Shown here one piece after another: positions 2,758-56,918 of a stretch of 64,000 nucleotides of DNA (positions are counted from its first letter, which is position 1; every line of letters begins with the position of its first letter). A program made the translations under genes and the position numbers. Source of the stretch: a virus. Below the pieces are notes generated by a model that saw nothing but the letters and a program-made list of their open reading frames with translations, did no database searches and was not told where the DNA came from. Where the stretch lies: positions 15,821-79,820 of the IMG/VR virus record IMGVR_UViG_3300049847_000663; one strand, written 5' to 3'.

Positions 2758-4316
2758 TAAGCACCTTCAACTATTGTAAATGTTGCATTTGCGGCTCCGC
2801 CTCTAATAACATTAACTGATTGTGTTGTTATAGTGTTATTTTCTAGAGTAAAAGATGATCCGCTTGTTAATTGTAATGACGGAGCAGCTGCTACCGCCGC
2901 TGCTCCAAATCTAAGCCAAATTGTTTGATTGCTATTATTTTGTATTAATAAATATTTTCTTGATGTATTTGCTGCTAGTGCAACTGAAGACGCGTTCGTC
3001 GCTGTTGCGCTTGAGTGAGTAAATGTTACAGGGAGAGGACCTCTAGGATCAATTTGTACCCCGGCTACATTTATACCTACATCTAGTGCTTGTTGTGAAC
3101 CATTTGTCTGAGATGTTAAATTGTTACCAGCACCATCTTGAGTTCTAGAACTCCATGTACCACTTTGAGTTGCTGAAACTGGAATCGAACTTTGATTCGA
3201 TGCAATAACGACCGGAGTAGAACCTGACATCGTAGATTGACCTAAAGCTGGAGTTTTAGCATCAATTGAAGATAATGAAGAATTTCCTGTAGTTTGTAGA
3301 GCGCTTGTTGAAGCTCCGGTTGGTAATGGTAAACTAGAAGCCGAAATTGGTTGAGTTGTTGCGCTTCCGTCAACCTTAAGAGCGTTCGTTTGATTTACTG
3401 CAGTATCCGCCTTTATAACAACAGTATTGGTAATTGAACCGAGTGTAGTAACTGCTGATAAAGTTGATGTTGGTTTTAATAAAGAATTTACTGAAGTGTC
3501 TAAAGCTAATCCGTTTGTTGTACCAATATTAGCAGTAATTGTACCAGAAACGGGTACTGGGGTCGCTCTAAGTTGAGTGTCAGTTAGAGGACCGGTAACC
3601 GCGACAGAACCAGTTATCGAAACTGAACCGTCTACTGTGATTGAATTTCCGCCGTCCTGTATATTAACGGCAGAAGATCCGCCGGGATTCTGTACAGTAA
3701 CTGACTCTAGGGCAGCTAATGTAGTAGCGCTTAAATCCACAGTTCCACTCACTGGCTGTACGGCAGGAAAATTAGAAACAGAGATACTAGATCCCGATGT
3801 ATCTACTTTATCTGTAGCAAAAGCTAGATCTCTAATATCTAAATCGGCAGCTTGTACAGTTAATGGCGATGTTAATTTACTATCAATACTAGCTAAACTA
3901 GAATTACCTGTAGTCTGTAAAGCTGATGTAGACGCTCCTGTTGGTAACACAGAAGATACAACAGTAACATCTAAACTAGTGGGAAATCCAGATATCGCAA
4001 TAGTACTTCCGCTTACGTCAACTTTATCTGTAGCAAAAGATAAATCTCGAATATCTAAATCAGTAGCCGTTACAGGAAGAGGGACATTTATAATAGCAAC
4101 ATCTAAACCGACCTGCGGTCCGACATGTGTACTTGTTAAAAAGTCGGTTCCATCACCCAATCTAACAGAATCTTCAGTGTGTGTAATTAAAACTTCTAAT
4201 TCTCCCCCGCCGCCAGGAGTACCATTTACAACTTTTACGCGCAAACAATTGTCTTCTACTTCAAAGACGCTACGTAAAACCTGAGGAAAATCATATTTTT
4301 TTAAATCAACAGCCAT
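2757..4316 (-). CDS. Fibre/decoration-like virion protein, paralogous to 1102..2757
   Basis: Repeats DLDIRDLxFATDKVDxSGS x2 and LPTGASTSALQTTGNSSL x2, with a C-terminal beta domain (RKYLLIQNNS...IWLRFG). Confidence 0.6.
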   Translation of the reverse strand: MAVDLKKYDFPQVLRSVFEVEDNCLRVKVVNGTPGGGGELEVLITHTEDSVRLGDGTDFLTSTHVGPQVGLDVAIINVPLPVTATDLDIRDLSFATDKVDVSGSTIAISGFPTSLDVTVVSSVLPTGASTSALQTTGNSSLASIDSKLTSPLTVQAADLDIRDLAFATDKVDTSGSSISVSNFPAVQPVSGTVDLSATTLAALESVTVQNPGGSSAVNIQDGGNSITVDGSVSITGSVAVTGPLTDTQLRATPVPVSGTITANIGTTNGLALDTSVNSLLKPTSTLSAVTTLGSITNTVVIKADTAVNQTNALKVDGSATTQPISASSLPLPTGASTSALQTTGNSSLSSIDAKTPALGQSTMSGSTPVVIASNQSSIPVSATQSGTWSSRTQDGAGNNLTSQTNGSQQALDVGINVAGVQIDPRGPLPVTFTHSSATATNASSVALAANTSRKYLLIQNNSNQTIWLRFGAAAVAAAPSLQLTSGSSFTLENNTITTQSVNVIRGGAANATFTIVEGA

Positions 4317-7068: not shown

Positions 7069-7079
7069 TATTTGTTAAA
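7069..7079 (-). promoter_or_regulatory. Putative late promoter motif TTTAACAAATA (before portal)
   Basis: One of four intergenic or gene-boundary copies upstream of minus-strand genes. Confidence 0.55.
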
Positions 7080-9325: not shown

Positions 9326-9336
9326 TATTTGTTAAA
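9326..9336 (-). promoter_or_regulatory. Putative late promoter motif TTTAACAAATA (head of the packaging operon)
   Basis: Same 11-mer at the divergence point. Confidence 0.55.
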
Positions 9337-9378: not shown

Positions 9379-10005
9379 ATGATACTATTTTTATTGATGT
9401 TATTTGTTCAAGCAAAAGAACCAATGCGAGTAGCGGTCATTGATTCCGGATTTAATCCTTATGTTGTTGAAAAATTACATAGATGTGATAACCTCCAAGT
9501 AAAATCCTTTGGAAATCCCACTACTTATAAACAAATAGAACATGGTACTAACGTTGCGGGTTTAATTGAAAAGTATGCAAAAAATAAATCTAAATTTTGT
9601 TTCATTCTAATTCGGGGATTATATACAACAAAAAGTACAATTGAATCAATACGTTATGCTATATTAATGAAAGCTAATATTATTAATTATAGCGGAACTG
9701 GAAAATATGAATCTAAAGAAGAACATCAAGCTATATTAGATTTTTTAAATACTGGGGGAAAGTTTTTTACAGCTACTGGAAATGACTCTAAAAATTTAGA
9801 TAAAGAATGTTCTGCATTTCCTGCATGTTATTCGTCACTTAAGATAAATGTAATAACTAATAGAGAATCCTATTCAAACAAATATTCAAAAGCTTTTATT
9901 TCCGATAAAGATGGAAAAAACGAAAACGTATATGATACTGAAATGACTGGAACTAGTCAATCAACTGCTATAGAGACGGGAAGATTTATTAATGAATCAA
10001 ATTAA
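9379..10005 (+). CDS. Secreted subtilisin-like (S8) serine protease
   Basis: Signal peptide; triad motifs VAVIDSG, HGTNVAG and GTSQST; oxyanion TGND. Confidence 0.88.
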   Translation: MILFLLMLFVQAKEPMRVAVIDSGFNPYVVEKLHRCDNLQVKSFGNPTTYKQIEHGTNVAGLIEKYAKNKSKFCFILIRGLYTTKSTIESIRYAILMKANIINYSGTGKYESKEEHQAILDFLNTGGKFFTATGNDSKNLDKECSAFPACYSSLKINVITNRESYSNKYSKAFISDKDGKNENVYDTEMTGTSQSTAIETGRFINESN

Positions 10006-10132
10006 CGTGCAATATTATAAATATACAAGCAATATTAAAGAATATATTTTTGATTATATTGCTTGTGAAAATGATAGATTAATACTTTGTATTTTTTATT
10101 ATGAAAACTATTTTTACATGGAAATAACATGA
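9992..10132 (+). CDS. 46-aa microprotein (family A)
   Basis: Manual translation MNQINVQYYKY...LILCIFYYENYFYMEIT; overlaps both neighbours. Confidence 0.6.
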   Translation: MNQINVQYYKYTSNIKEYIFDYIACENDRLILCIFYYENYFYMEIT

Positions 10133-10344
10133 AGCGCGTTGATATGGTAGATAAAATCATTCATTTCGTTAATACCATCACTAAAGGTAAAACTATACTT
10201 AACTCTATAGAGTCTGATATTTTACTAACGAGGATAGAGCAAACTGGTATGGTACCACCAAAAATTACAAAAATGAAAGATACTTAGTTTCGTGATACGG
10301 GTGATTATGGTTATGAGGTTCATGAATGGGACGAAGATGAATAA
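10129..10344 (+). pseudogene. Small ORF interrupted by an in-frame TAG at 10285-10287
   Basis: MKRVDMVDKII...GMVPPKITKMKDT*FRDTGDYGYEVHEWDEDE*. The final TAA overlaps the next gene's start (ATGAATAA). Confidence 0.5.
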
Positions 10345-10522
10345 AGTAATAGTAAAATACTACAACATAAGATCGATTAAAGAATATCCACTAGAATCTT
10401 TAACTATCATTTTAAATAGCGGAGCTATTACAATGGAAGACAATTCTATTTCATTTCCGGAACATGAATGTCTTTTAATGGGTCTTTTTTTGATTGAAGA
10501 AAACGGAGAATTCTATGAATAA
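10337..10522 (+). CDS. 61-aa microprotein (family A)
   Basis: MNKVIVKYY...[16 protein letters not shown]; the ATG at 10337 fits translational coupling. Confidence 0.6.
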   Translation: MNKVIVKYYNIRSIKEYPLESLTIILNSGAITMEDNSISFPEHECLLMGLFLIEENGEFYE

Positions 10523-10661
10523 TGTTAACGTACAATATTATGATTATCGCCCAGGTATCGAGTTAATAGATATTTTTTTTGATGCTTGTATACGAATGGG
10601 ACATAGAAGTATGTTACTTTGTCTTTTTTATGTAGAAAGTTATTATGACTTCTATAACTGA
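10515..10661 (+). CDS. 48-aa microprotein (family A)
   Basis: Manual translation [11 protein letters not shown]...[16 protein letters not shown]. Confidence 0.6.
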
Positions 10662-11244
10662 TCTATGTTTAAAAATAGCTAAAGAAAACGGACCTTTTTT
10701 CCCAGAAGAGAAGAATGTTTTTCGTGCATTAGAACTAACACCAAATCCTAAAGTAATTATCCTAGGCCAAGATCCTTATCATGGAGAAGGTGAAGCTAAC
10801 GGACTAGCGTTCGGTATAAATCAAAATATAAAAATCCCCCCATCTCTTAGAAACATTTTAAAAGAATTAAAAAATGATTTAGGTATTGAGTGCCAAAATT
10901 TGTCACTAGAAGGTTGGGCGAACCGAGGCGTTCTTCTTTTAAATACAGTACTCACTGTTAAACCTAACAGACCTGGGTCTCATTTTGGAATCGGCTGGGA
11001 AATATTTACAGACGAGATAATAAAACAACACGCCGATACCGGAAACAAGGTATTTATTCTTTGGGGAAAGAAAGCCCAATTAAAAAAAAGCTTGATTAAT
11101 CCTAACAAAAACTGTATATTAGAAAGTAACCATCCATCCCCTTTATCAGCAAATCGAGGTGGATTTTTTGGTACAAAACCTTTTAGTAAAGCTAACGCTT
11201 TTCTTGAAAGTATAGGAGAAGAACCCATTGACTGGAGTAAGTAA
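10645..11244 (+). CDS. ung: Uracil-DNA glycosylase, family 1
   Basis: Motifs [24 protein letters not shown] and HPSPLS. Confidence 0.95.
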
Positions 11245-12772
11245 GTTGTTAAAAGCTTTAATTTACGCTGGATTTAGTGCATTAATGGGGTATTATTTTG
11301 TTAATACTCAACCATTAAATTATATATTACTAGCTATGCAGATTTTAAATTTAATCTTAAGTATTTATTATTTATTAACTGCAATTGATGAGATTAAAAG
11401 TAAATGAGTTCTAATAGCGATGAAGAAATTCAATTACCATTAGGTATTAACAGTTGGTGGGGAGAAGCTTTTGATAAAGACGGTAAATCGAATTGTTATC
11501 ATAAATGGGTTAAGTATGAAGGCTTCACTGATAAATATGAGTTTTGTGAAAAGTGCGATGAAAAAAGAACATTAACTGAGGGACATGATTATGAAAAATC
11601 AGGAACAAGTTCTAAAAGAACTTTTTGAATTTGCTGAAAGTTTAGGTATGTTTGTTTTTTTCAATAGTGACAGTGAAGAAGAACATATGAATGGTTTTAT
11701 TATAGGAACTGAAGATTATTTTTATAATATCGCCGATGGGCTTGAAGATTTAGAAAATTATAACAAAGTTATGGGTGTAGAGACTATATCAAAACCGGAT
11801 ATGCATTAATGAATTTTTTTACATTTGCTTTTTATTTTTTTATATGTCAAACTGTATACGATGTAATTTCTAGTTTAGTTAGAAGTTACATGTTAAAAAA
11901 AGAATTTGAAAAAATTAGAGAACAATTAGTAGAGGATAAAAATATATGGAATTAAAAAACTACGTGATTACTCTTTCAAACGGCCAAGGATATCCAGTAA
12001 CGTCCAAGGCGGTTAACGGAACTGAACTAATTTTACGCCTAAAGGGTAGTGATGTAATTGAAATTATGAAAGTAAATACATCCAAGTTTATAGTAACCGA
12101 TCATATTGTAGAAGTTTACGAAACTGAAAATAATGTATATCAAACCGAGAAGTCTTGGACTTTAGCTAGGGAGTAATTATGAAACAAATTGTTATGTTAT
12201 TAATCGATGTTAATGGAAATATAGTAGCTTCTTATAATAATAAGGATTTTATTCAAAAACTCCTTCCCGCTATTGAAGCCAAACTTGTTACTAATATTGT
12301 ACAAATTAAAGAAGTGCTGTTAAATCCACCACTAGACTTAATTGGTAATGAAAATTTTACTAAAACATATACAACAGAAGAATTTCTTAGGACTTTAGGA
12401 TGAGAATCGAATATGTATGTTACAGCGAAACTTTAGATAATTTGGTTATTGTAAGTCAAATACCTAAAAGTGAATTTAGAAATATACAATTTTCTTTAAC
12501 TACCGAGTTTGGAGAAGATCCAGTAAATAAACCTGATCTTAAACAAATGGAATCTAATTTAAAACTTCACCTAATTGCGATGGAGACAGTATGCGATTAA
12601 AGATATTATTATCAGTATTAACATTAGTTATTGTTACCGGTACATATTTCTACGGTCACAACAAAGGTAGCATGGAAACGCGGTTGTTTGTAAAACAAGT
12701 AGTTCTTCCTTTATGTTACCTTATGACACCAAATGATAAAGAACAACTAACAGTTTGTTTGGATCAGAACTT

Positions 12773-13027
12773 ATGAGTAGTGATGTAAAGATCAGACCCA
12801 TTCCGGGGTACGAATCCCAATACCTAATTGATACCTATGGTAACGTGTTCTCTGTTAATCGCTTTGTGCCAACTGGCATTGGTGATAAACTAAGAGAAGT
12901 TGGTGGTAATATGGTTCGTCCATACACAAATAAAAAGAATCGGCAGGTTTGCGTTAAGCTAAACAAAAACGGCAAACGGTCAACTCATATGATTTCGACC
13001 CTCCTTAAGCGAACTTTTGGAGAATAA
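12773..13027 (+). CDS. NUMOD4-domain protein (no HNH part)
   Basis: RPIPGYESQYLIDTYGNVFSVNR matches the NUMOD4 N-terminus. Confidence 0.7.
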   Translation: MSSDVKIRPIPGYESQYLIDTYGNVFSVNRFVPTGIGDKLREVGGNMVRPYTNKKNRQVCVKLNKNGKRSTHMISTLLKRTFGE

Positions 13028-13765
13028 ATAATGCTTCTTGAAGCTTTGGTAATTGGAATGTGTTTAGGTAAGTATGAATGCGCAAAAACTCCACAAGCCT
13101 ATTACCTTTCTAAGCCTAAACTTCGTAGCTGGGTTAAGGAAAAAACCGACACAATGAAAGATAGTCTTAAGACACGTCCAGTAGCTCAGGTGGTGGTGCC
13201 TACTTTGCTCGGTTCTGCCTTTCTAATGACTGGCGGTAAACCTCGAATCAGGGTAACTGATAACGCATCTTTAACCCTAAGTCAAAGACAACTGGACATT
13301 ACTTTTACTTATGTTTTTTAAGGAATCTTATGAATCGTAATTATACCTTCCTTGCTACTTTTGTTCAACAAAGACGTCGTAGAATTTTAATATTTGATGA
13401 AATTTATAAAATGTGCCCATGTATATCATATACAATTAAAAATGCTATATATCAAGACCTGTTTTATTAAGAATAAATACGGTCGATAAGAAAAGAAAAA
13501 CCATGAAAAAACAAATATCAGAAAACCATAAGTCGATAAGCGCCACAAAAACAGCAATGAGTCCTGAAGTGGAGCTTGAATATAACTACTATAAATTACT
13601 AGAAGATATTAAAGAATGTTATGATAAAGAAGTGAACCATTTAGAGGTACCCTTTTCTTGCGCTAAAGACTATCCAAAAGACCTATGTTATCGACTACAA
13701 AAACTACAACTCAATGTTGACATTACAAAACAATCAATTCTCATCCAACTTCCCATAAAAAAAGC

Positions 13766-13794
13766 TTGACTTATCGACTACTTCCAAATATTCT
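13766..13794 (+). promoter_or_regulatory. sigma-70-type promoter
   Basis: TTGACT-N17-TATTCT upstream of an AGGAGG RBS and ORF 13825. Confidence 0.65.
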
Positions 13795-14596
13795 ATTATC
13801 TGTGACGCAATTAGGAGGAATAAAATGCTTGACTATCTCAAGGCTAATTTGGATCTGAGCGAGATTCTCAGTTTCAATTATAACGTTCAAAATGGCGTTT
13901 TAACGGTACATGGTAAGAACGACCTCGGTCAGCTAGCAGTTCGCACTAAAACGCTTTCTAGGCTTGATGGAGCGCGTTTATTTAGGCTGCATATTTCTAA
14001 CATGCCGGGACTCTAAATGGAACTAATTAAAATAAGAAACCCTAGATTTTGGGCTCTAACTGACCTAAAGTTTGATTCACTATTTAATGCTTTATTTGGA
14101 ATTAGTTTTTTTATTTGAATACTACAATTAATTCAATAAGTTAGGATAATATGCTTAAGGTAAACATAAATAATGAGGACTATTATTGGCTTCTAATTCG
14201 GATGAAGACTCGTCATTTGTGGGAGGACATCCTCCCTTGCAACGATGTACCAATTACTATACAAGATCTTTATTATTATAACTAAAATTCTTCCCCAAAT
14301 CCTTAACAATTATAAGCATTTAAATTAGAATTTCTTTGGGGAAGGGGAGCTAGTAAACTTCACAAGCTCAGTTTCCTGCGCTCATAAAGCCCTATACAAA
14401 CTGACTGGAAGTAATGCTGGACTGATAGTAGAGGAGATATATATTTTATTGTACATAGCACAATCTCAACACAACACAGACTACCCTACCCCCCCCTACC
14501 GCCTCAGATCTAGCTGCGCTACGATCGTAGCGGCTTGCTATCCTATTAGGATCATTCATCTATTTAGAATGAGAAGCTTCGCACAGTGTTATGATC

Positions 14597-14698
14597 TTAA
14601 ATCTCATCAGTGCTAAACATCAGATCGGGATTGCAGATGTGATCTTTAATAAATTTCTTTACAGCATCTATTAGTTTTTTCATTGAACGCAAGTTCAT
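14597..14698 (-). CDS. 33-aa peptide downstream of the leftward sigma-28-type promoter
   Basis: MNLRSMKKLIDAVKKFIKDHICNPDLMFSTDEI with an AAGGCGG RBS-like sequence. Confidence 0.5.
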   Translation of the reverse strand: MNLRSMKKLIDAVKKFIKDHICNPDLMFSTDEI

Positions 14699-14722
14699 TG
14701 TGTACCGCCTTTTGTATATAAC

Positions 14723-14749
14723 TCATCGGCGGACTTCTTTAAAACTTAA
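14723..14749 (-). promoter_or_regulatory. sigma-28 (FliA)-type promoter, leftward
   Basis: Minus strand TTAAGTTT-N11-GCCGATGA. Confidence 0.75.
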
Positions 14750-14886
14750 GGACTATTTGCATTATTAATTATTTTCTTTTTTATGCAAGAATCATACCAA
14801 TTTATTTGCTGTATCATTGTGGGATTAAGTGACGTAAGTAGTTGATATCATTGATGAATATGTTACAATCATTCTGTCCAGTACTA

Positions 14887-15186
14887 CTATTCTTCATTCA
14901 TCCTATTTACTATCGACCGCAGTGAAGCAAGGTCATCGTTTGTTTTGGATATGGAAACACCTACTGTCTCGTTTTGATACGTTTCAGCATTTATTTCCTT
15001 AAGATCATTTCCTATCTCAGGTTTGGACTTTTTCAATCCATGTCTTTTGTTGACGGTCTTTACGCTAGTGACTACTCTCAAACGTCTACTAGAATCCACG
15101 ATGGACTTAGGATGTGAGCGACCTAAGCTTAGAGGTGGACCTGTCTCGGTGTCTTTTCTCATTTTGAGACGACTGCCCTTTTTCAC
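14887..15186 (-). CDS. Isolated hypothetical protein preceded by the late motif
   Basis: ORF track; TTTAACAAGTA lies just upstream at 15202-15212. Confidence 0.45.
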   Translation of the reverse strand: MKKGSRLKMRKDTETGPPLSLGRSHPKSIVDSSRRLRVVTSVKTVNKRHGLKKSKPEIGNDLKEINAETYQNETVGVSISKTNDDLASLRSIVNRMNEE

Positions 15187-15201
15187 GGTCCCGTCTTAAT
15201 A

Positions 15202-15212
15202 TACTTGTTAAA
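15202..15212 (-). promoter_or_regulatory. Putative late promoter motif TTTAACAAGTA
   Basis: One-mismatch copy upstream of ORF 14887..15186. Confidence 0.45.
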
Positions 15213-15309
15213 TTTTCCTCATTAAAAGTGTATCAAATTGAGATAGTTTTGTCAACTTTTCTTTATTCTTAAGTAAAATCAATGAGTTCTCATTATTTTT
15301 ATTTTTTCC

Positions 15310-15336
15310 TTAAGTTTTATTGAAACTGCCCGATAA
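15310..15336 (+). promoter_or_regulatory. sigma-28 (FliA)-type promoter
   Basis: TTAAGTTT-N11-CCCGATAA, 35 nt before the first early gene (AAGGGAG RBS). Confidence 0.75.
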
Positions 15337-15371
15337 GTAGTATATAAGATTGATAACTAAGGGAGACTAAG

Positions 15372-15854
15372 ATGAGTTTGATTCAAGAATTGAAAAATAA
15401 GCTAAACGAAGCAAAAAAACGGTTTTATAGCCTTAAGACCAAAAGAGCAAAGGAAAAACAACGCGACATCATTCGGGACCTTAATTTTCAGCTTGAGGAC
15501 GCTCTACTTGAAGGACTAAAACCTTACCTAAACATGAGGCATGAGGGTGTCATTGTTTCCGGTGGGACTGACGCATTAGCAAGGACTGAATTTGGTATTG
15601 TGCCGGTTTATGCGGTGAATGACCGACTAAGCAAATCGTGGTATGATACTACTTGCTGCGTGTCTTATAAGGATGGAGACAAGATCACTTTTGAAATAAA
15701 ACATCCCAACGTTGAAAATGGTCGTCTTAATTGGTTTGCCGCCGAGGTTGAGGGTGGCTCTTTAGATACAGAAAAATATAACAAGTTATGTAAACAAGAC
15801 AATTTGGCGTTCTTTAAAAAACAAGACGGTTCAATGACCGGACTATTTAAATAA
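15372..15854 (+). CDS. First early hypothetical protein
   Basis: 160-aa ORF with a strong RBS after the sigma-28-type promoter. Confidence 0.7.
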   Translation: MSLIQELKNKLNEAKKRFYSLKTKRAKEKQRDIIRDLNFQLEDALLEGLKPYLNMRHEGVIVSGGTDALARTEFGIVPVYAVNDRLSKSWYDTTCCVSYKDGDKITFEIKHPNVENGRLNWFAAEVEGGSLDTEKYNKLCKQDNLAFFKKQDGSMTGLFK

Positions 15855-16693
15855 GGAGACTTTATGAGGACTAAAGAGTTTACAATAATGTGCGCGATTG
15901 TGATGACGATTGTTACAATCCCAATGTGGTTGTTGTTTCAGTTTTTTGTGCTACTTAATACAGGACTTTAAGTATGTGGGTTATTAAGACTAAATCAGGA
16001 CACGAATACGACCTAGTTTTTAAATCTTATGAGACCGCTGAGGATTGGTTGTATTCAACGCTGCTTAAAGGGGCGACTTATGTTAGGGACCGTTACTTAA
16101 TTGTGCCTGTAGACTAAACAAGGGAGTTTTTAGATGAAAACAAAAGAAGACATGAAAAATACATACGAAGTGATAAGATCTTATGTTAATGAAGTTATAG
16201 GCCTTGAGCTTGACCTTCCACGCGCTCTGAACCTGATAGAACAAACGCTTGATACTGAGATTGATTGGTCAAACAAGGAAGCCTCACAACGGGCACTATT
16301 TGACTTCATTGAAAAACGTCAAGGTGAGGTGATACAATGAAAATTTTTTCTTATGAACTAACTAAAGTTACGTTCAGGGTTGCAGACCTAGTTATGGGTT
16401 TTTCCATCGTTTTAGTTTCCATGGTGTTTTTAATTAAAATCTTATGCGAGGTGTTTTCATGAAATACCTAACTAATTCTTTACGTTCTACCGGTTTAGTT
16501 AGTGAGTTTGATTTACAGCAACTAAAGAAAGAAGCTATTGAATTCACGAACTTAATCAAACAGTTAAAAGCTGACGGTCAACATAGCTCTAGTGATTTAA
16601 TACGATCTTCAGTAAAAAGACTTTATGAAATTAGGGCAATTGCTGAGCTACACATTAAGTCTCTTAAAAGAGCGCATCTACGGATTGTATCAA

Positions 16694-17038
16694 ATGAAAC
16701 AGATGAAAATGAAAAATAAACGTAGAAACTCAATTGAGATTAGTCCTGAAACGCGGTTAAAAACGCTGTATTTCCTGTTACAAGGGCTTGACGCACATGA
16801 GTTAGCCGTTAACCTAGAAATAGGTTTTAAGGCTTTAAAACACCGTTTAACCCTTATTTATAAGTTTTACGGGGTTAAAAACAGGATTCAATTGATGAGT
16901 CTTTATATAAACATCCCAACACGAGTTAGAAAATCTTTTATAAATGATGAAAATAAAGTAGTTACGCGTAAAAAATACAAAACTAAAGAGCAATTTAAAG
17001 AAAATGAAAATATTTTGCCACAAGGCCTAAAGTTTTAA
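16694..17038 (+). CDS. LuxR/GerE-type helix-turn-helix regulator
   Basis: LLQGLDAHELAVNLEIGFKALKHRLTLIYKFYGVKNRIQL matches the LuxR HTH pattern; start codon uncertain. Confidence 0.75.
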   Translation: MKQMKMKNKRRNSIEISPETRLKTLYFLLQGLDAHELAVNLEIGFKALKHRLTLIYKFYGVKNRIQLMSLYINIPTRVRKSFINDENKVVTRKKYKTKEQFKENENILPQGLKF

Positions 17039-17054
17039 AAAATTAGTCCGATGA
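17028..17054 (+). promoter_or_regulatory. sigma-28 (FliA)-type promoter
   Basis: TAAAGTTT-N11-TCCGATGA. Confidence 0.75.
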
Positions 17055-17355
17055 GATATATGAACCGCGATGAACATGGTTCGAGCATAAGGGAGAAATA
17101 AAATGACAATGATTTACAAAATAACAAAAAAATTCACAAAACTTGATAAAAATCCTTATTTCGAAGACACCAGAGCATGGCATACATTTATTGATATATG
17201 TTGTACACATAACGTCGTTGAAGGTTATGAATTAAATATCGATTTAATGATGAAAGAGCACTCTCAAACTTATGATTATTATGATGATACTTTGTTGTTG
17301 TTTGTTGAAGATGGACTTCTTGAATGTATTTACGACCTTAAAAAGGAGAAATAAA

Positions 17356-17769
17356 ATGAAATACATGAAAAGATCAAAAATTTATAAAGCTTCGAACGTA
17401 ATATTTAATCCTAACACCATTGAGGCGTTTTCCTATCGTTGGTGGAAATTTGTTAAAGTTATTGATGGTTTAGTGGTTTTTAATAAATATCGCTATTCAG
17501 TTTCAACCGCCAAACATCAAGCTAAAGTCAGACAACTAATGATTGAATTAGGAATTAAGGTTGATCTATATGTTAATGTGCGCGAATCATTAATAGACCA
17601 GACGATTGAAGAGCTTATTATTCAAACTGAAGAGAACATATGTGATGACTTTTTGTATAAAAAACTAAAACAAGGCGAAGCTTATGATAGAAAAAAAGCT
17701 AAACAAGCTTCATTAGTCGAGCGTGTTATTGAGAATACTTATAACCAAGTTGAGGTGAGTTGTGGATAA
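17356..17769 (+). CDS. Early hypothetical protein
   Basis: ATG at 17356 after an AAGGAG RBS. Confidence 0.6.
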   Translation: MKYMKRSKIYKASNVIFNPNTIEAFSYRWWKFVKVIDGLVVFNKYRYSVSTAKHQAKVRQLMIELGIKVDLYVNVRESLIDQTIEELIIQTEENICDDFLYKKLKQGEAYDRKKAKQASLVERVIENTYNQVEVSCG

Positions 17770-18410
17770 AAAAATAATTTTAAGTAAAACTGATGAAATT
17801 TTATTAGAAGATATTTTAGAATATTTGTTACATGATAAAGAAAAAGAAGACTTGTTAACTTCTTTTGAAGTTAATGAAACAGATTTTTTTGATGAAAATG
17901 GTGATTTAATGGTAGATAGACTACCAAGAACCGCGCACGATCATATTTATGTAAAAGCTTTTAAATTATTTAGTCAATTAAAAGAGGTACAAAATGTTTA
18001 ACTATAAAAACTTAATTCAAGATTGCGCGATTAATCAAGGGTATTGTTTAGGCCTTGAAGCGTTTCATCGCTTAAAAGGGTCTTTAGACCACGCTAACTT
18101 TTACTTAAACCTAGCTTCAGACTTTAATAAAGTAGCTGTAAAACTTAAAAATAGAGCTTTAAAACAAGGTTTAAACCTAAACCGTGAAGAGCTAACTTCG
18201 TTGATTTATTCAGGCCTTAAACAAGGTAAACAGGAAGCTTCGGAGAATGTGAAATGTTGTTAATCCTGATTATTTTAGCATGTTTTGGTTATATACCGTT
18301 TTGGGTTGTGTTAATTGGATTGTTTTTTTGTTAGAAAGGTTAAGTATGAATAAATATTTATATAATTTAGTTTTGATAATTATATTTTCATTATTTTTTA
18401 TTAGTTTAGG

Positions 18411-18437
18411 TAAAGTTTTTTAAAAATCTTCCGAAGA
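18411..18437 (+). promoter_or_regulatory. sigma-28 (FliA)-type promoter
   Basis: TAAAGTTT-N11-TCCGAAGA before an AAGGAG RBS and ORF 18464. Confidence 0.7.
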
Positions 18438-18463
18438 GATAGTAACGACAAAGGAGTAAGATA

Positions 18464-18766
18464 GTGAGTAAAAATAAATTCACGTCCGGACCATGGACAC
18501 CTGAATTAGACACAACACAACTTAATCATAAGACATACATAAGGACGACTAAAGATAAAGATAACGAATTTGTTCAAATTGCTGAGATAAATCGTTTTGT
18601 TGATATTAAGCTTGACGGAGCTAACTCTGCTCTTATCGCCGCCGCGCCGGAAATGTACGAAGCTTTAGAAGAGTTACTTGAAGTTGTTAGACGTTTTGGT
18701 GGTATTCCTCTTGAAGATCCTTTTAAGTATGACAAGTTACTAAAAAAAGCCCGAGGTGAAAAATGA
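18464..18766 (+). CDS. Conserved phage hypothetical protein ('TxGPW...AN.xLIAAAPE' family)
   Basis: FTSGPW and ANSALIAAAPEMYEAL motifs. Confidence 0.65.
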   Translation: MSKNKFTSGPWTPELDTTQLNHKTYIRTTKDKDNEFVQIAEINRFVDIKLDGANSALIAAAPEMYEALEELLEVVRRFGGIPLEDPFKYDKLLKKARGEK

Positions 18767-18886
18767 GTGAAGAAACAAAGAAAAAAATTGAAGATTTAAA
18801 ATATAGAATAAACTTAGGGTCATGTAATACTGAACAATTAGCAGCATGGCTTTTTGAGTTGTTAGAGATTTTATCAGGAGATCAAC

Positions 18887-19306
18887 ATGAGTGAATTATT
18901 TTTATTATTTAACTTAGTTTTTGCATCAAATGAATTAGATTTAGCTATTGATAAGGCAGCGCAGAAATACAACATTGAGTCTCAAGACCTAAGACTAATT
19001 GCGGCGGTTGAGTCGAGCTATTCAGTTAATCCTAAAATCAATGAAAATAGGAATAAAACTATTGACATGGGACCTTTTCAAGTAAATTCAATACACAAAA
19101 ACACAACTTGTAAAATGTTTAATATTGAAACACTTGACGGGAATGTTCTTTGCGCGGCTAAACTAATAGCTATGCATAAAAAACATAAAGGGACTGATTT
19201 TTACTGGCTTGCACGTTATCATTCTAAAACACCTAAATATAAAAAAATATATCAAGAAAAACTAGAAAAAGCTAAAGTTTTATTTTTAATTGCCGATAAG
19301 AATTAA
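18887..19306 (+). CDS. Exported lytic transglycosylase (SLT family)
   Basis: Signal peptide; IAAVESS catalytic Glu, DMGPFQVN and ARYHS motifs. Confidence 0.88.
   Translation: MSELFLLFNLVFASNELDLAIDKAAQKYNIESQDLRLIAAVESSYSVNPKINENRNKTIDMGPFQVNSIHKNTTCKMFNIETLDGNVLCAAKLIAMHKKHKGTDFYWLARYHSKTPKYKKIYQEKLEKAKVLFLIADKN
19273..19299 (+). promoter_or_regulatory. sigma-28 (FliA)-type promoter, perfect consensus
   Basis: TAAAGTTT-N11-GCCGATAA. Confidence 0.85.
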
Positions 19307-20396
19307 AAGGAAGAAATTATGAATAAAGAAATATTAATTATAGTTTTAACAATTTTACTTTTACCGATTTGGTTTCCTATGTTTTTAATTAGATTTTGTT
19401 TTGATAGAGCTGAAATATGCATGAAAATATTAGAATAAAGGCGGTAAAACAAATGATTTTTAAAAATGTATATGATTATTTCTATTGGTTAGGCGTTCAA
19501 GATAAAAGAACAAAAATTAATAGAAATTTTATCAAAACTGGAATTGTAAAGAAAATTAAAATAGCTTATTTAAAAGGTTATAACAAAGGAAACAAAAATG
19601 CAAATAAACAAAAAAGAAATTCTAGAGCAAGCTAAGCAATTAAAAGTGGATTTTATTGTGGGAAATAGTGGGACTAAACATTTATGCGGGCTTCACGTTA
19701 AAGACGAAGGGTCAGCCAGCCTTAATGAAGCTTTATCTCAAGCTTTAAAGATCGGTTACGACAGAGTTTATCTTTACAGAGAAGATCCCAAAAAAGTAAC
19801 AAATGTGTCTAAAATTAATACAAATTTTAACTCAAATCAAAGTGAATATAGCAAAATTAAAATGTCTTTAGATAACTTGAAAAACACCTTTGGGGTTGAT
19901 ATACTTAAAGCTGTAGCTATGACTGAATTAACTTTAACTGAAAATAGAGGATAAATATGAACATTTATCAAGTTAAGTTTGACGCTAAAAAAGAAAACAT
20001 ACAAAACAGCTTTACAATTGTTGTTGACGCGCATTGTGCTTATGAAGGTGACGCGATTGAAGAGGCTAAAAACCACATTAAACGTCATTATGAAGGTATT
20101 TTAAGCCTTGAGTTAAAGTCGGTTTGTTTTCTTGAAACGGTTGAAAATAGAAGTAAAAAGATTAATCAATTTAATAGGGATTAATATGAAACCAATTAAA
20201 TTTATCGATTTAGATGTTGATGGAATTGATACAAACGACTACCCTGATTTTTGCGACGCTTTTATTTCATCAGCTACGGCGGTTTTTGAAGACGGTTCTA
20301 TGCGCGATGCTAACGATGATGAATTAGAAGAATTAAACGAAGATTCAGATTTAGTCTATTCACTTGTTTTAGAGCGTATTTACTAGGGAGAAAAAA

Positions 20397-21455: not shown

Positions 21456-22556
21456 ATGCGTTTAGATAAAGCTATTAAAATATTATTAAATGAAAAACCG
21501 TTTTATGCTTATTTTTTAATTAATAGCACGGTTCTTTGGGATGCTTATGGTGTTGAAACTGCTGCGGCGGGAGTAATGAACGCCACCCCTACGCTATTAT
21601 TTAATAGTAAATTTGTTTCAACTTTAACAACTGAAGAATTAGCTGGAGTTATTGAACACGAAGTTGAACATTTAGTTCACGACCATGTAAATACGGGAAA
21701 AAACTTATCACTTGATAAACATATTCACAACATAGCAACTGACTGGTCAATTAATCAAAGAATTAAAGTTCTTCCCGAATGTGCAATTACTCACGAATCA
21801 ATGGAAAAAAAATTAGAACAACAAATAGAAAAATACCAAGATTCTATTTTTTATTATAATCTTTTACTTAAAAATCAGGATAAAATTAAAGATCTAATGC
21901 CAATGGATGACCATGATTTAGAAGAATTAATAGGAAAACTTGAAAAAAGTGGTTTAAGTCAAGCTGCTATAAAAGAAGCTTTAAGTAAAGCAATTAAACA
22001 AGCTAATGGGAATGTACCGGAACATTTAAAAAACGTTATTTCTTCTATTATGAAGCCACAAGAATTACCTTGGCAACAAATATTAAGAAATTTTATTTCA
22101 ACATCGACCTCTTCTTTAAATTTAAACACGAGGAAGAAAATTAATAGAAGATTTGGACTTGATGCGCCAGGAAAAAAGAAAAAACGCGTTTTAAATTTAG
22201 CAGTTTGTGTTGATAGTTCAGGATCAGTAAGTGACGAGCTATTTAGTCAATTTTTAAGCGAAATTTATCACATTACTAAACACACAGGTTCTACTTATTT
22301 AATTGAAATTGACTGCGAAATTAAAAAGGTTGAAAAACTTAAGAAAAAGACTAAAATTAATGAAAGAACTGGTTACGGCGGAACCGCCTACAATCCAGGC
22401 CTTAAAAAGGCTAAGGAATTAGGCTGTGACGCTGTGGTTTATATGGGTGATGGTGATTGCGCAGATACCCCAGAAAACCCTAAAATGCCAGTTCTTTGGG
22501 TTTTACCTAAAGAGACTAAATGTCCTGCTAATTTTGGAAAAACATTATACATTTGA
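21456..22556 (+). CDS. HEXXH metallopeptidase-like plus VWA domain protein (MoxR partner)
   Basis: HEVEH motif and MIDAS motifs VDSSGSV, GGT and MGDG. Confidence 0.88.
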   Translation: MRLDKAIKILLNEKPFYAYFLINSTVLWDAYGVETAAAGVMNATPTLLFNSKFVSTLTTEELAGVIEHEVEHLVHDHVNTGKNLSLDKHIHNIATDWSINQRIKVLPECAITHESMEKKLEQQIEKYQDSIFYYNLLLKNQDKIKDLMPMDDHDLEELIGKLEKSGLSQAAIKEALSKAIKQANGNVPEHLKNVISSIMKPQELPWQQILRNFISTSTSSLNLNTRKKINRRFGLDAPGKKKKRVLNLAVCVDSSGSVSDELFSQFLSEIYHITKHTGSTYLIEIDCEIKKVEKLKKKTKINERTGYGGTAYNPGLKKAKELGCDAVVYMGDGDCADTPENPKMPVLWVLPKETKCPANFGKTLYI

Positions 22557-24331: not shown

Positions 24332-24844
24332 ATGAAATCCATGCTTGAGCAAATAGAAGCGGCGGGGGCTTGGGAAGATCCACTGTTTAATTCCTTGGAA
24401 CGATTTTTTTCTAAAATAAATATTCAAGAAGAAGATAGGTGCTGGGAATGGATAGGATGCAAAAACCGAAAAGGATACGGATATATCGGTTTTAAAAATA
24501 GAAACTTTTTAGCACACAGGCTTATGAAATTTTTAGCAGAACCATACGAGTTTAAAAATCAAAAACTTTTGGTTTGTCATCATTGTGATAATCCAAGTTG
24601 TGTAAATCCGAATCATTTATTTTTAGGGACTCACGCTGACAACCTGGCAGATATGTCAAAGAAAAAAAGACATTGGCTTGGAAAGAGAAGCCACTGCAAA
24701 AATGGGCATGAGCTTAACGAAGAAAACTCGCGACCTAGAAAGATCGGCGGTAGAAAATGTTTAATATGCTGTCGAAAAGCTAATGCTGCTTATAGGCGCA
24801 GACAAAAAGAAATCGCCGCGCTCGTGCCGAAGGGGGATGAATAA
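24332..24844 (+). CDS. HNH endonuclease (HNH_3 type)
   Basis: Motifs [31 protein letters not shown] and HCKNGH. Confidence 0.9.
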
Positions 24845-36724: not shown

Positions 36725-37162
36725 ATGAGCAAAGTTTATCGCCATTCTGATGGAACATATAACGATTACCCAGAACAGACTATCGTAAACAGAATTCCAA
36801 CAACAGTTAATATTTATAGTACATTTGAAGAAATCCCAGTTTCCAAAGGTTTAAAATTTGACGAAAACAAAGTACCTCTTGATTTAATTCCTTATGATGC
36901 TTTAGTTGAAATTGGTAAAGTTTTACAAGCCGGAGAAAAAAAGTACGGGACTGCTAACTGGTCAAATGGAATCGAAATGCGAAGGCTTCTTGCTGCGGCA
37001 ATGCGACATTTAGGACAATTTAATAATGGCGAGGACATTGACGAGGAAACTCAAACACTTCACATAGCAAATTCTGCTACTAATTTATTATTTGCAATTT
37101 GGATGTATAAGAATCGCCCGGACCTAGATAATCGTTGGGCTAAGAAAAAGGATTCAAAATGA
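36725..37162 (+). CDS. dATP/dGTP diphosphohydrolase-domain protein (DUF5664-like)
   Basis: GLKFDENK...LIP...VLQAGEKKYG..NW..G...AAMRHL...GEDIDEETQTLHIA. Confidence 0.85.
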   Translation: MSKVYRHSDGTYNDYPEQTIVNRIPTTVNIYSTFEEIPVSKGLKFDENKVPLDLIPYDALVEIGKVLQAGEKKYGTANWSNGIEMRRLLAAAMRHLGQFNNGEDIDEETQTLHIANSATNLLFAIWMYKNRPDLDNRWAKKKDSK

Positions 37163-38361: not shown

Positions 38362-39315
38362 ATTGTACCTAAGTGATGATAAAAATTTAAATTATGTATT
38401 AAAAAATACAGATTTAACTTTAAATGAATTAGAGTTAATTGTTGGAAGATTTAAAAAAGATCATCACTCTTGGGCAAACAAATTTAAAGGTTTATATTTA
38501 GAAGACTGGGATGGTAATAAGAAAATTGTTCATCATTTTACGCGAAAAGTTTTATGGAGGAATAAATGACGGTTTATTACACTAAATTGAAAGTAGCGGG
38601 AACTAATTTTCATTATTATGGTTGTTATTATAAAAGAAATTCAAGCAATTTTATTGACGTTTTTAGTTGCATTGATAATCCACAAAAACCCCATAAACAC
38701 GAGGAGTATCTAAAAGAAAAATTATCAGAAATGATAACTTTCTTAAGTCCTTATAAATTAACAGTCGAGCCTACTGAAACGTATCGTGAAATAGTTTCAA
38801 GAGAGATTTATAAATGAAAAAAATATTCCAGCCGAGTGATTTTATGTTTACAGGACTAGAACCAAAAGAAGCCGCTGATATCGCTAACGCCAAAATGGAA
38901 AAGCTCATGAGCGAGTGGCCAACTTGGTATGCCGATAAGAGTATGCGAGAGGTGTCACCAACAATTCAAGATGAAAAAAATCATGTAGCGATAAGCTCTA
39001 ACTTTAGAAATTCCTATTACCAATTTAAAATGGCATTCATCGAGCCGATCAAGCGGGAGCCTTGTAAGCATGAGCCAGTTCTTTTTTCAGTTAATGCGGT
39101 TTATAGGCCTAATGGCCCGGTTCCTGAAGATGAAAACTATAAATGCAAACACTGCGGCGTCTCCTTAGAGGTAACATGGACGGAAAAAACGTGATTTACC
39201 CAGAATTCAAACAGAAACCTGCATATATGTTTTTGCTCGCTCGCATTTTCGGCAAGCGTATTGGTAAAGGTGCTTATGAGTGGCGAAATCAAATTTGGAT
39301 TGTACAGGATGTTCT

Positions 39316-39822
39316 ATGAAAATCATCCCAAACCCAATTTTATACAAAGTATTAAATCGAGGAAGACTTGAAGGATTTATTGTAGCTTCCTTTTTTTGTA
39401 TACTATTCTTTTTACTTTCAGGATGCTCAAGTTATAAAAAAGTATATTCAGTGGATGAAAAACTTCAACCTTATGTAACCCAATTTGAGAAAATAAGCAA
39501 TAAAAAAATAGATAATTTAATTGTAAAATTTAGCTATTTATCTAATAAAATCGTAGCTCAATGCACTCAAGGATTTAACCCTTTAATTGAAGTAAATTCA
39601 CGTTTTATAAACAAAATAGGAAATTCGGCTGAAATGGAATCTATTATGTTTCATGAGCTTGGTCATTGCATTTTATTAAGAACTCACACAAAAGATACCA
39701 ATTCTATAATGTACCCATACATGATTCCTGTGGATTTCTATTTAGTTAATTATAAACTTTACATTTCAGAGCTTTTTGGTGTAGAATATGATAAAGAATT
39801 TGACTGGAGTGTTTATGACTAA
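39316..39822 (+). CDS. Matrixin-like (metzincin) metalloprotease, probable lipoprotein
   Basis: Lipobox LLSGC, HELGHCILLRTH and Met-turn SIMYP. Confidence 0.85.
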   Translation: MKIIPNPILYKVLNRGRLEGFIVASFFCILFFLLSGCSSYKKVYSVDEKLQPYVTQFEKISNKKIDNLIVKFSYLSNKIVAQCTQGFNPLIEVNSRFINKIGNSAEMESIMFHELGHCILLRTHTKDTNSIMYPYMIPVDFYLVNYKLYISELFGVEYDKEFDWSVYD

Positions 39823-46871: not shown

Positions 46872-47237
46872 AATTGTAAAGTAATTAGACAGGAGAAAAA
46901 ATGTCAAATGACGTAACATATACCGATGACCTAACCCTCGACTTTCCCGATGCGGAAGAAGTTCGAAATGAAACAACACCTAAAGAAGTTATTTATCGAA
47001 ATAAAAAGCGCACGTTTCTTGCAAGCCTTGGAAGTGACATTTTAAATCGAGCCCGCACTCAAGGTATTTTCGATCATTCAGCAACATTAACTGCTAATTT
47101 TTTAGGGTTAACTTCAGAAGATCAAGAACGAATGATTAATGAAGTTATTGCAGTTGTACAAAATAATGGATTTAAAATTGAAGTTACGAAAAACGAAGAT
47201 GGTTCACGTTTAGTTAAAGTTGACTGGAGTAAAACTG

Positions 47238-48065
47238 ATGTTTCTAATTAATTTAATTCTTATTACATTTTCTTTCGCTTCAGTAAATCAACCTAAAACA
47301 AATAAAGAGCTTCGAAATGCTGCTGTAATGGTCGTTAATAACGAAATGTCAAGTGGGGGGACTGGCTCTATTTTAAAAAGCGATAATACGGGCTCTTTAA
47401 TTTTAACTAATAAGCACGTTTGCCGTGTTGTTGAAAACGGAGGCTATATTATTCACGAAAGACTTCGCTCAAAAGTTGTTGCTTATAAAGTTTACACAAA
47501 ACACGATCTGTGTATTATTAAAATTAAAAACAATCTAGGTGTTAATTTAAAGCTCGCTGATAAACGACCGGAAATGGCAGATACCAGCGTAGTTTCTGGC
47601 TTTCCCCAGCTTAAACCTAACACGATCACTAGAGGTCACTTTTCCGACCTACTATTAGTTAATGTTATGGTTGGAGAAGATGAATGTACCGAAGAGGAAT
47701 TCCTTACTAATATGTATTGTATTTTTATGGGATTTAAGCCTCGAATCGAAACGTTCAAATCCCAACATACCTCTAATCTAATTCAACCCGGAAATTCCGG
47801 TAGTGCCGTTTTTAATGGCGACGGTGATCTTGCTGGTGTGGTGTTTGCTGGAAGTGGAGATCTTGGATTTGCTTTAATTGTCCCTTATGATTTTGTTGTT
47901 GACTTTGTTAAAAATCAAGAAACATATCCATTTGTTAAGCCTACTTTTAATTTCACAATCATGACTGCATCTAGATCTACCGATGCAATTAAAAATATAT
48001 GTAATTTAATTGATATTGATCTTTGCAAGAAAACCGCATTTAATATGCCTTATATTTCGAGATAA
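47238..48065 (+). CDS. Exported trypsin-like (S1) serine protease
   Basis: Signal peptide; motifs LTNKHV, HDLCII and PGNSGSAV. Confidence 0.88.
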   Translation: MFLINLILITFSFASVNQPKTNKELRNAAVMVVNNEMSSGGTGSILKSDNTGSLILTNKHVCRVVENGGYIIHERLRSKVVAYKVYTKHDLCIIKIKNNLGVNLKLADKRPEMADTSVVSGFPQLKPNTITRGHFSDLLLVNVMVGEDECTEEEFLTNMYCIFMGFKPRIETFKSQHTSNLIQPGNSGSAVFNGDGDLAGVVFAGSGDLGFALIVPYDFVVDFVKNQETYPFVKPTFNFTIMTASRSTDAIKNICNLIDIDLCKKTAFNMPYISR

Positions 48066-56907: not shown

Positions 56908-56918
56908 TATTTGTTAAA
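56908..56918 (-). promoter_or_regulatory. Putative late promoter motif TTTAACAAATA (before the ejection-protein block)
   Basis: Same 11-mer about 25 nt upstream of ATG 56882. Confidence 0.55.

Follow-up and report, generated by a model that had tools for sequence, protein, structure and literature searches.

Five blocks of small, early-type genes in an uncultured freshwater phage are probably turned on by the motility sigma factor of the host, sigma-28 (FliA). This reading was drawn from the DNA sequence of the 79,820-bp (~80 kb) phage genome, designated G000 (34% GC), 64,000 nucleotides of which make up the stretch analysed here, hereafter the window. Five sites resembling sigma-28 promoters are present, all confined to 4.6 kb. 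In the mechanism that we propose, the five sites would function as promoters of the sigma-28 class (FliA/SigD/WhiG), with four directed rightward and one leftward. Each would drive a short run of small genes of early type, located immediately before the MoxR and replication modules. The sites would most likely be read by the RNA polymerase of the host together with its sigma-28, so that expression of the 4.6-kb block would require active (FlgM-free) host sigma-28 and thus a cell that is motile or flagellated. We estimate the probability of this reading, in which the sites are sigma-28-class promoters of early-type units tied to the motile state through the host factor, at roughly 60%. No paper was found that describes phage early genes wired to a host flagellar sigma factor through such promoters.

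The published sigma-28 consensus of class 3 flagellar and chemotaxis promoters is TAAAGTTT-n11-GCCGATAA (PMC2859248), and the five sites agree with it in both boxes and in spacing, as the earlier note on this DNA had claimed. Every site was recovered with the coordinates and strand given there. Total mismatches range from 0 to 3 across the five sites, and the spacer between the octamers is exactly 11 nt in every one. The -35 box carries at most one mismatch throughout (TTAAGTTT in two sites, TAAAGTTT in three), and the -10 box contains CCGA in all five, with box mismatches of 0, 1, 1, 2 and 3. Three positions outside the search pattern are also shared, namely a C before the -35 box, a T after it and a G after the -10 box. 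The form CTAAA, with a C preceding TAAA, is familiar from the SigD literature. Each site is followed by a Shine-Dalgarno sequence and a start codon, the latter 24, 35, 48, 26 and 19 nt past the -10 box.

Across the whole genome, four matches with up to two mismatches to TAAAGTTT-N11-GCCGATAA were found compared to 0.16 expected from 200 first-order Markov simulations. When up to three mismatches were allowed, the 64-kb window contained 10 matches against 1.82 expected, a count not attained in any of 100 shuffles. Six exact copies of the core AAGTTT-N12-CCGA exist genome-wide, namely the five sites and one antisense copy at window position 24486. Scans at spacings of one nucleotide more or less than 11 revealed no further strong site, and the claim that the window has no comparable match elsewhere holds. 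Collectively, these results support five sites that are non-random, positioned as promoters and consensus-like in both boxes and in spacing.

The leftward promoter, TTAAGTTT-N11-GCCGATGA (14723-14749, minus strand; PWM score 29.6), has an ATG 24 nt past its -10 box. It does stand upstream of a start codon as proposed, but the sole reading frame behind it, read from the sequence, is a 33-codon ORF (14698-14597, minus strand). Nothing unusual was seen in the predicted structure of the leftward transcript (z = -0.74). In a ~90%-identical relative, positions 14601-14792 are without a listed substitution and both flanks are dense in differences.

The other four sites lie on the plus strand. P1, TTAAGTTT-N11-CCCGATAA (15310-15336; score 29.5), precedes putative transcription unit 1 (15372-17038), which by the ORF list comprises about seven small orphan genes, including a 160-aa protein, two small ORFs judged hydrophobic by eye and a terminal possible HTH protein (16694-17038); none of the unit 1 ORFs gave a Pfam or PHROG match. 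P2, TAAAGTTT-N11-TCCGATGA (17028-17054; score 26.3), overlaps the 3' terminus of the gene before it and would serve unit 2 (17103-18423), which the ORFs and a homologue search show to consist of small genes, including 17356-17769. P3, TAAAGTTT-N11-TCCGAAGA (18411-18437; score 15.7), is the weakest site with three mismatches, and this weakness counts against reading by host sigma-28. A ribosome-binding site and an ATG had been reported after every site; the Shine-Dalgarno sequence and a start are indeed found at all five, but the gene behind P3 begins with GTG (18464), 26 nt on. Profile matches identified in unit 3 (18464-19306) a phrog_1273 protein (18464-18766; E 4.6e-13) and a lytic transglycosylase (18887-19306; SLT E 6.4e-05), and the unit also has a 43-aa ORF. 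P4 is a perfect copy of the consensus, TAAAGTTT-N11-GCCGATAA (19273-19299; score 31.6), falling within the final codons of the gene for the transglycosylase. Unit 4 behind it (19319-20386) contains a 39-aa ORF, hydrophobic by eye, and small genes, and runs into the MoxR-type ATPase module from 20397 onward. The small orphan genes behind the sites are positioned upstream of the replication module. The suggestion that the phage starts infection from this block is speculative; a 5-kb block of rightward genes upstream of it (9379-14616) has no such sites.

The sequence directly after the -10 boxes offers material for a different reading. Behind four of the five -10 boxes stands a hexamer of the form TATATA, TATATG or TATAAG, and a weak sigma-70-like TTGAAA-N17-TATAAG, read from the sequence (15320-15348), overlaps P1. 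Clear overlaps are seen in two relatives, as TTGAYW-N16-TATTAT in G007p and TTGACG-N17-TATAAG in G001. The sites could therefore be mainly sigma-70 or dual promoters that start from the A/T-rich TATATR hexamers just past CCGATAA, with the sigma-28 likeness secondary. We regard this as distinctly improbable, since recognition by sigma-70 would not account for the positions that are conserved best, which are TAAAG, CCGA and the constant spacer of 11 nt. The would-be -35 hexamers of G000 are also poor (TTTTAA or TTTTTT), most of the downstream hexamers do not end in the conserved T, and sigma-70-type matches are not enriched in the region. Given the TATATR elements and the overlapping sigma-70-like promoters in relatives, sigma-70 may contribute to transcription from the sigma-28-type sites. 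The earlier note had described promoters elsewhere as being of the TTGACA-N17 type and the replication genes as left to sigma-70. Sigma-70-like matches numbered 53 compared to 53.5 in shuffles, so neither description has statistical support; a few good sigma-70 candidates do sit before genes, and sigma-70 is a plausible choice for the replication genes.

Six-frame searches with Pfam Sigma70_r2 and NCBIfam TIGR02937 gave no match in G000, G001 or G002, all of which are complete, nor did Sigma70_r4 and r4_2 in G000, the one genome scanned with them. Pfam searches of 30 uncharacterised ORFs at E up to 1, and of about ten more at stricter thresholds (E down to 0.001), found no sigma factor, and neither did PDB sequence searches of five ORFs. 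As no sigma gene was detected in the phage, host sigma-28 would be the most economical reader of the sites. None of the RNA sequencing runs searched holds the sequence. Phage sigma factors may diverge too far for Pfam, and the sites could be read by a phage sigma or sigma-like factor that is unrecognisably diverged or borne by the virion, in which case the genes of the block would be middle genes and not early ones read by the host. Sigma-like proteins are encoded by some of the other motif-bearing contigs, which counts against the host factor as reader: G012 has a 260-aa sigma-like ORF (40.6 bits to TIGR02937) and G015 has one at 20.5 bits. The relative G004 gives a weak match (15-19 bits). 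The site-free upstream block could also be expressed first. However, G000, G001 and G002 hold nothing sigma-like at any threshold tried, G000 has no counterpart of the sigma-like ORFs seen in G004, G012 and G015, and apart from a subtilase-like protein and a UDG the upstream block encodes nothing but ORFs shorter than 100 aa. A sigma factor that escaped detection would in addition have to retain, or converge on, the full sigma-28 specificity for both boxes and the spacer. We therefore consider a phage-encoded reader unlikely.

The small protein that closes unit 1 (16694-17038) resembles a LuxR/GerE HTH protein by eye, and repeated regulatory sites are common before phage gene blocks. This raises the question of whether the sites are operators for a phage DNA-binding protein, such as this one, or some other repeated signal. 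Such a role appears highly improbable, because the motif is asymmetric, bipartite and promoter-spaced, always points towards the gene that follows and is separated from the start codon by a distance typical of promoters. Relatives that retain the motif have no homologue of the HTH candidate, and the HTH reading, made by eye only, received no support from any tool tried.

Conservation in related phages is consistent with sigma-28-class promoters. The relatives compared share 40-60% protein identity with G000, with G002 more distant, and have 2-13 sites each, nearly all on the gene strand (11-13 in G001, 4 in G003, 2 in G004, 3 in G007p and 5 in the distant G002). The promoter embedded in the transglycosylase gene, P4 or its orthologue, is kept in three phages (G000, G003 and G004). 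Within it the codons for KVL....[AT]DK are kept, and the codons of the spacer differ while the spacer length and both boxes are fixed. Dozens of unrelated viral contigs, ranging from 25 to 56% GC, also have the motif. For 130 sites in uncultured viral contigs, a Shine-Dalgarno sequence, a start codon and an ORF followed within 12-80 nt in 80% of cases compared to 14% of random positions, with a median site-to-start distance of 30 nt, and sites were co-oriented within contigs. Three loci (L007, L008 and L010) show an N16 variant, TTGAG-N16-ACGATA. By these sequence comparisons, the sites behave as a conserved promoter class.

The motif-bearing phages were fetched using the family of 17356-17769 as bait. 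This is a widespread phage family of unknown function with 35 homologues, and it is also found in many phages without the motif. Elsewhere, the homologues sit directly behind either a sigma-28-type or a sigma-70-type (TTGACA-N17-TATAAT-type) promoter. Since the same gene stands behind ordinary sigma-70-type promoters in other phages, the promoter class varies with the phage and not with the gene. Beyond this family, no uncharacterised gene of small or medium length is common to all motif-bearing phages. The AF2 model of 17356-17769 is beta-rich (pLDDT 91) and gave no fold match beyond a long helix.

Which host would supply the sigma factor was approached through the nearest record with a named host, Proteobacteria phage MWH-Nonnen-W8red 1 (CP017838.1), which is associated with Silvanigrella aquatica. 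The two phages share a virion module, with identities of 29% for the portal, 31% for the capsid, 29% for a terminase-like protein and 34% for a large tail protein, and the Silvanigrella phage is likewise from freshwater and has 33% GC. It is, however, very distant, and its 43-kb partial record has no sigma-28-type site at a PWM score of at least 12. This faint link is the only hint of a host in the Oligoflexia/Bdellovibrio lineage. In 401 genomes of a single phylum, searched at the DNA level, no spacer-like or prophage link to the phage was found. Related phages were binned in MAGs labelled Flavobacterium and Saccharibacteria (without FliA), which speaks against reading by host sigma-28. FliA exceeded the curated cut-off in one MAG with a related phage contig but not in four others. 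Such binning of phage contigs is unreliable. A Shine-Dalgarno sequence precedes 51% of genes compared to a background of 6.5%, and such heavy use argues against a Bacteroidota host.

Silvanigrella belongs to the class Oligoflexia, which now also includes the Bdellovibrionales. The earlier note had placed the phage in a Bdellovibrio-like predator, with genes fired through FliA in a non-replicating attack-phase cell and thereby tied to the life-cycle switch. FliA-type promoters make up about two thirds of the mapped attack-phase-specific promoters of Bdellovibrio bacteriovorus, with the consensus printed as TTAAG-N16-CCGATA (Karunker et al. 2013, PMC3627812), and the TTAAG form of the -35 box is found in two of our five sites. 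In that attack phase, sigma-28-type promoters serve a large non-flagellar gene set tied to a motile cell state, a use that the mechanism proposed here would share. Flagellar and chemotaxis genes are present in Silvanigrellales (PMC12321486). In contrast to the printed N16, the distance from TWAAG to CCGATA is 15 nt (N15) in all five sites here. The Silvanigrella link is remote, at 29-34% identity in four virion proteins, and the motif spans viral contigs too varied in GC content to be tied to one host lineage. The GC content of B. bacteriovorus, about 50%, also differs from the 34% of this phage. A predator host is doubtful on this evidence, and the claim stands unsupported bar the faint phage link. 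A wider proposal, to which we give somewhat more but still little credence, is that a whole class of uncultured phages, to which this one would belong, leaves its early programme partly or wholly to the host flagellar sigma, so that infection would proceed only in motile cells with free sigma-28. The host of this family would be a freshwater bacterium of the Oligoflexia/Bdellovibrio lineage, either one of the Silvanigrellales or a predator. Sigma-28 would govern its swimming stage, and the phage would thereby read the life-cycle switch of the host.

Textbook phages begin infection at promoters read by the housekeeping sigma, or else supply a polymerase or sigma factor themselves. Regulons of phage-encoded sigma factors include the T4 late promoters (gp55) and the SPO1 middle and late promoters (gp28 and gp33/34). 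As in those phages, a dedicated non-sigma-70 promoter class here appears to mark one temporal block of genes. T4 and SPO1 encode the reading factor themselves, and their sigma-regulon promoters are not known to resemble any host alternative-sigma consensus, whereas here the sites reproduce such a consensus and no phage sigma was found. The sites share their boxes, 11-nt spacer, upstream C and distance before genes with the class 3 promoters of FliA (E. coli, Salmonella) and SigD (Bacillus subtilis). Unlike those promoters, they lie in a virulent-type phage genome, five within 4.6 kb, and the genes that they precede are small orphans with no flagellar or chemotaxis gene among them; their sigma-28 dependence is predicted. 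If this prediction is true, placing early genes behind an FlgM-controlled host sigma would be a new form of host-state sensing, in which the phage commits only in motile cells. This would fit entry through flagella, or hosts that can be infected at a swimming stage, and phage expression would be heterogeneous within the host population. Because the consensus is shared across phyla, the prediction is directly testable with the sigma-28 holoenzyme of a model bacterium. The motif is easy to score and conserved in the phage family, and could thus mark host state or host range in viromes.

Between the divergent sigma-28-type sites lies one copy of a separate phage motif, TTTAACAAGTA (15202-15212, minus strand), a putative late promoter class. 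It has five exact copies in the 64-kb window compared to 0.54 expected, all of them on the minus strand.

The earlier note had placed five sigma-28/FliA-type elements at 14723-14749 on the minus strand and at 15310-15336, 17028-17054, 18411-18437 and 19273-19299 on the plus strand, and each was confirmed at exactly that position. Matches with up to three mismatches numbered 10 in the window against 1.82 expected, and those with up to two numbered four in the whole genome against 0.16 expected from 200 Markov simulations. The exact core AAGTTT-N12-CCGA was present in six copies, namely the five sites and one antisense copy within a gene at 24486. A relaxed weight-matrix scan allowing one-base changes in spacing revealed no additional strong site anywhere in the genome, in line with the claim that comparable matches are absent elsewhere. 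Outside the query pattern, further bases are usually shared by the sites: the -35 box is flanked by C on its 5' side and by T on its 3' side, and the -10 box is followed by G. Each had been described as standing upstream of a ribosome-binding site and an ATG; a Shine-Dalgarno sequence is indeed present at all five, and the start codon is GTG rather than ATG at one. The -10 box lies 24, 35, 48, 26 and 19 nt from the start codon, and the leftward site has only a 33-codon ORF behind it, with no unusual structure found in the leftward transcript. The motif observation is real and statistically solid.

A weight matrix was built from 24 sites in the phage genome and related loci, and was applied to the relatives of the phage and to 59 further viral stretches holding the exact TAAAGTTTT-N11-CCGATAAGT. 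For 80% of the 130 sites with a score of 20 or more, a Shine-Dalgarno sequence and the start codon of an ORF of 30 or more codons follow on the same strand within 12-80 nt, compared to 14% of random positions, and the median distance from site to gene start was 30 nt. Orientation was uniform inside contigs (for example 8:0, 7:0, 5:0 and 5:0). This placement before genes, together with the co-orientation, suggests that the sites behave as promoters and not as symmetric operators or chance motifs. As an exact 18-base pattern, the motif was found in ~55 IMG/VR contigs with a GC content of 25-56%, several of which contain clusters of 4-8 sites. Phage promoters read by sigma-28 were not reported in the papers that we found.

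Homologues of the protein encoded at 17356-17769 led to 40 viral loci, and in several of these the motif is clustered on the strand of the genes. Whole-record comparison places G001 (87.6 kb, with terminal repeats) in the family of this phage together with G003 and G004; their portal, terminase, capsid, primase-helicase and polymerase proteins are 37-60% identical to those of this phage. These three carry 11-13, four and two sites, respectively, and five occur in G002 (59.7 kb, 46% GC), a complete but more distantly related phage, so that the conservation in related phages that the earlier note wished to see checked was found. The perfect site at 19273 is embedded within the final codons of a lytic transglycosylase gene. 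The transglycosylase orthologues of G003 and G004 (~40% identity) have the same embedded site in the same frame; the codons beneath both boxes are kept (KVL ... [A/T]DK), and the spacer codons vary (FLI, AMN, KCP) at constant spacer length. A variant of ~90% identity is known from another study. Its listed differences reach 15029 and cover the leftward site alone of the five; among them, no substitution falls in 14601-14792, the stretch with that site, and both flanks are dense in differences. A scan of metagenome contigs gave no closer relatives, and a phage isolate collection contained neither a homologue of the 17356-17769 protein nor a DNA match to another motif-rich contig. Judged from sequence, the sites form a conserved class of predicted sigma-28-type promoters on early-type phage genes.

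The genes behind the sites encode small orphans, a phrog_1273 protein and the transglycosylase. The block headed by the sites immediately precedes the MoxR and replication modules, a location that fits an early class. The proposal that the phage starts infection through these sites gained no support, since 5 kb of rightward genes (9379-14616) lies further upstream without any. Nor was the assignment of other genes to sigma-70 promoters statistically supported, as sigma-70-like matches were not enriched; good candidates of this type precede the primase-helicase gene and a few others. The window also has five copies of a further motif, TTTAACAARTA, where 0.54 would be expected; all are on the minus strand (4130-4140, 7069-7079, 9326-9336, 15202-15212 and 56908-56918). 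Four copies lie in or flank minus-strand virion gene blocks, two of them visibly just upstream of virion genes, and the motif is likely to represent a separate, late promoter class. The fifth copy (15202-15212) lies between the divergent sigma-28-type sites. This inter-site region (14750-15310, 560 bp) also contains TTGATA-N16-TACAAT at 14842-14869 on the plus strand and TTGACA-N17-TACACT at 15255-15227 on the minus strand. Many 1-8-nt indels are spread across it in the ~90% relative, and a 99-codon minus-strand ORF at 14887-15186 is therefore probably not coding.

The sigma-28 consensus as printed (PMC2859248) is the consensus of these sites, and the factor reading them could be supplied by the host or by the phage. 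Six-frame searches with two models, Sigma70_r2 and TIGR02937 (sigma-70 family in general), gave no match in the complete genomes G000 (this phage), G001 and G002, and Sigma70_r4 and r4_2, run on G000, gave none there. No sigma factor emerged either when ~40 ORFs were scanned with Pfam, 30 of these at E up to 1, or when five ORFs were used in PDB sequence searches, and a FlgM-like gene is absent from G000, G001, G002 and G004. Among the other contigs with the motif, sigma-like ORFs were seen in G012 and G015 and, as a weak match, in G004; no homologue of these ORFs was found in this genome. For a possible HTH protein, the single-sequence fold was too poor for a fold search (pLDDT 60). Enzymes and virion proteins aside, the sole gene common to all motif-bearing phages is the 17356-17769 family used to fetch them, which is beta-rich and also occurs in many phages without the motif. 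The main rival, a hidden phage-encoded factor that reads the sites, appears unlikely.

Elsewhere, 17356-17769 homologues follow ordinary TTGACA-N17-TATAAT-type promoters. Two related phages, at loci L012 and L017, have homologous sequence before the same gene; it reads TAAAGTTT-N11-GCCGAATA at 9924-9950 in L012 and TTGACA-N17-TAATAT in L017, an apparent switch of promoter class through a few substitutions. Since the same gene stands behind a sigma-28-type or a sigma-70-type promoter depending on the phage, promoter class goes with the phage and not with the gene, and presumably follows the phage's host. The sigma-28 of the host is the most likely reader of the sites, and we assign a probability of about 0.6 to this best supported, as yet unproven, mechanism. 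In relatives, good sigma-70-type promoters overlap some of the sites, with TTGAYW-N16-TATTAT in the related phage G007p (G007:C6) at 66425-67416 and TTGACG-N17-TATAAG in G001 at 82560-82598, which suggests that these may be dual-sigma promoters. In this phage, however, the sigma-70-type overlaps are only weak, so that dual use with sigma-70 is possible but secondary here.

The phage contig, an IMG/VR record of 79,820 bp of which the window is bases 15821-79820, has 127-bp direct terminal repeats, an estimated completeness of 100% and 33.9% GC. Identical sequences or close variants are present in metagenomes that several studies obtained from freshwater and freshwater sediment. The virion genes occupy the minus strand. 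Small orphan genes are found in the long rightward block (9379-49961), along with a MoxR-type ATPase module, an exonuclease and ERF recombinase, a primase-helicase, a family B DNA polymerase, ribonucleotide reductase, ThyX and a dUTPase. No tRNAs or Rfam families were found in the phage genome. Among phage isolates, the DNA polymerase has only distant relatives, in phages of Salinibacter and Nostoc, and a ThyX query of the ESM Atlas gave viral clusters only and no host lead. Among records that name a host, the closest is a Silvanigrella aquatica-associated phage (freshwater, 33% GC), with which four virion proteins share 29-34% identity; that record contains no such sites. Portal relatives were found in MAGs labelled Flavobacteriaceae, Flavobacterium, Saccharibacteria (twice) and 'Proteobacteria NORP111', placements that we take as composition-based mis-binning. 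Only 'Proteobacteria NORP111' among these has FliA, and the motif was not enriched in the MAGs over a reversed-pattern control. A comparison of 20 kb of phage DNA with 401 genomes of one phylum yielded short, chance-level matches only. To our knowledge, Bacteroidota largely lack AGGAG-type ribosome-binding sites; their frequency in this phage argues against a Bacteroidota host.

Silvanigrellales belong to the class Oligoflexia, to which Bdellovibrionales have also been moved, and possess flagellar and chemotaxis genes (PMC12321486). The earlier note had tied the phage to the life cycle of an attack-phase, Bdellovibrio-like predator, a reading whose host-side biology comes from PMC3627812. The attack-phase consensus is printed there with N16 spacing, and these sites have N15. 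With one faint hint in its favour, this scenario is speculation and we consider it improbable. In the phages at loci L007, L008 and L010 (GC 43-46%), genes of the 17356-17769 family are preceded by TTGAG-N16-ACGATA, some 60-95 nt before position 10001. This sigma-28-like variant has the spacing that is printed for attack-phase promoters of Bdellovibrio, longer by one base.

Unlike this phage, the flagellotropic Salmonella phage Chi (L173, JX094499) has no early-gene cluster of such sites. Chi has one sigma-28-type site with two mismatches, TCAAGTTT-N11-GCCGATAT, at 1744-1770 on the plus strand, in the 3' end of chi_001 and ~215 nt upstream of lysis gene B; this single site may be due to chance.

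The 17356-17769 protein, encoded on the plus strand, belongs to a widespread phage family (35 homologues), whose genes frequently come first after an early promoter. A confident AF2 model of the family (pLDDT 91) predicts a five-stranded sheet, a helix and a 53-residue C-terminal helix; matches in the PDB span the long helix only, with no solved fold beyond it. Three peptidases are predicted in the phage, subtilase-like S8 (9379-10005), trypsin-like (47220-48065) and a weak matrixin-type match (39280-39822). The MoxR-type ATPase is followed by a gene at 21456-22556 for which the PHROGs label is HNH endonuclease family only. The protein at 36725-37162 on the plus strand matches Pfam PF18909 (dATP/dGTP diphosphohydrolase N-terminal domain, E 6e-29), a family that we take to be associated with MazZ of phages with modified purines, and has homologues in G001, G002 and G004.
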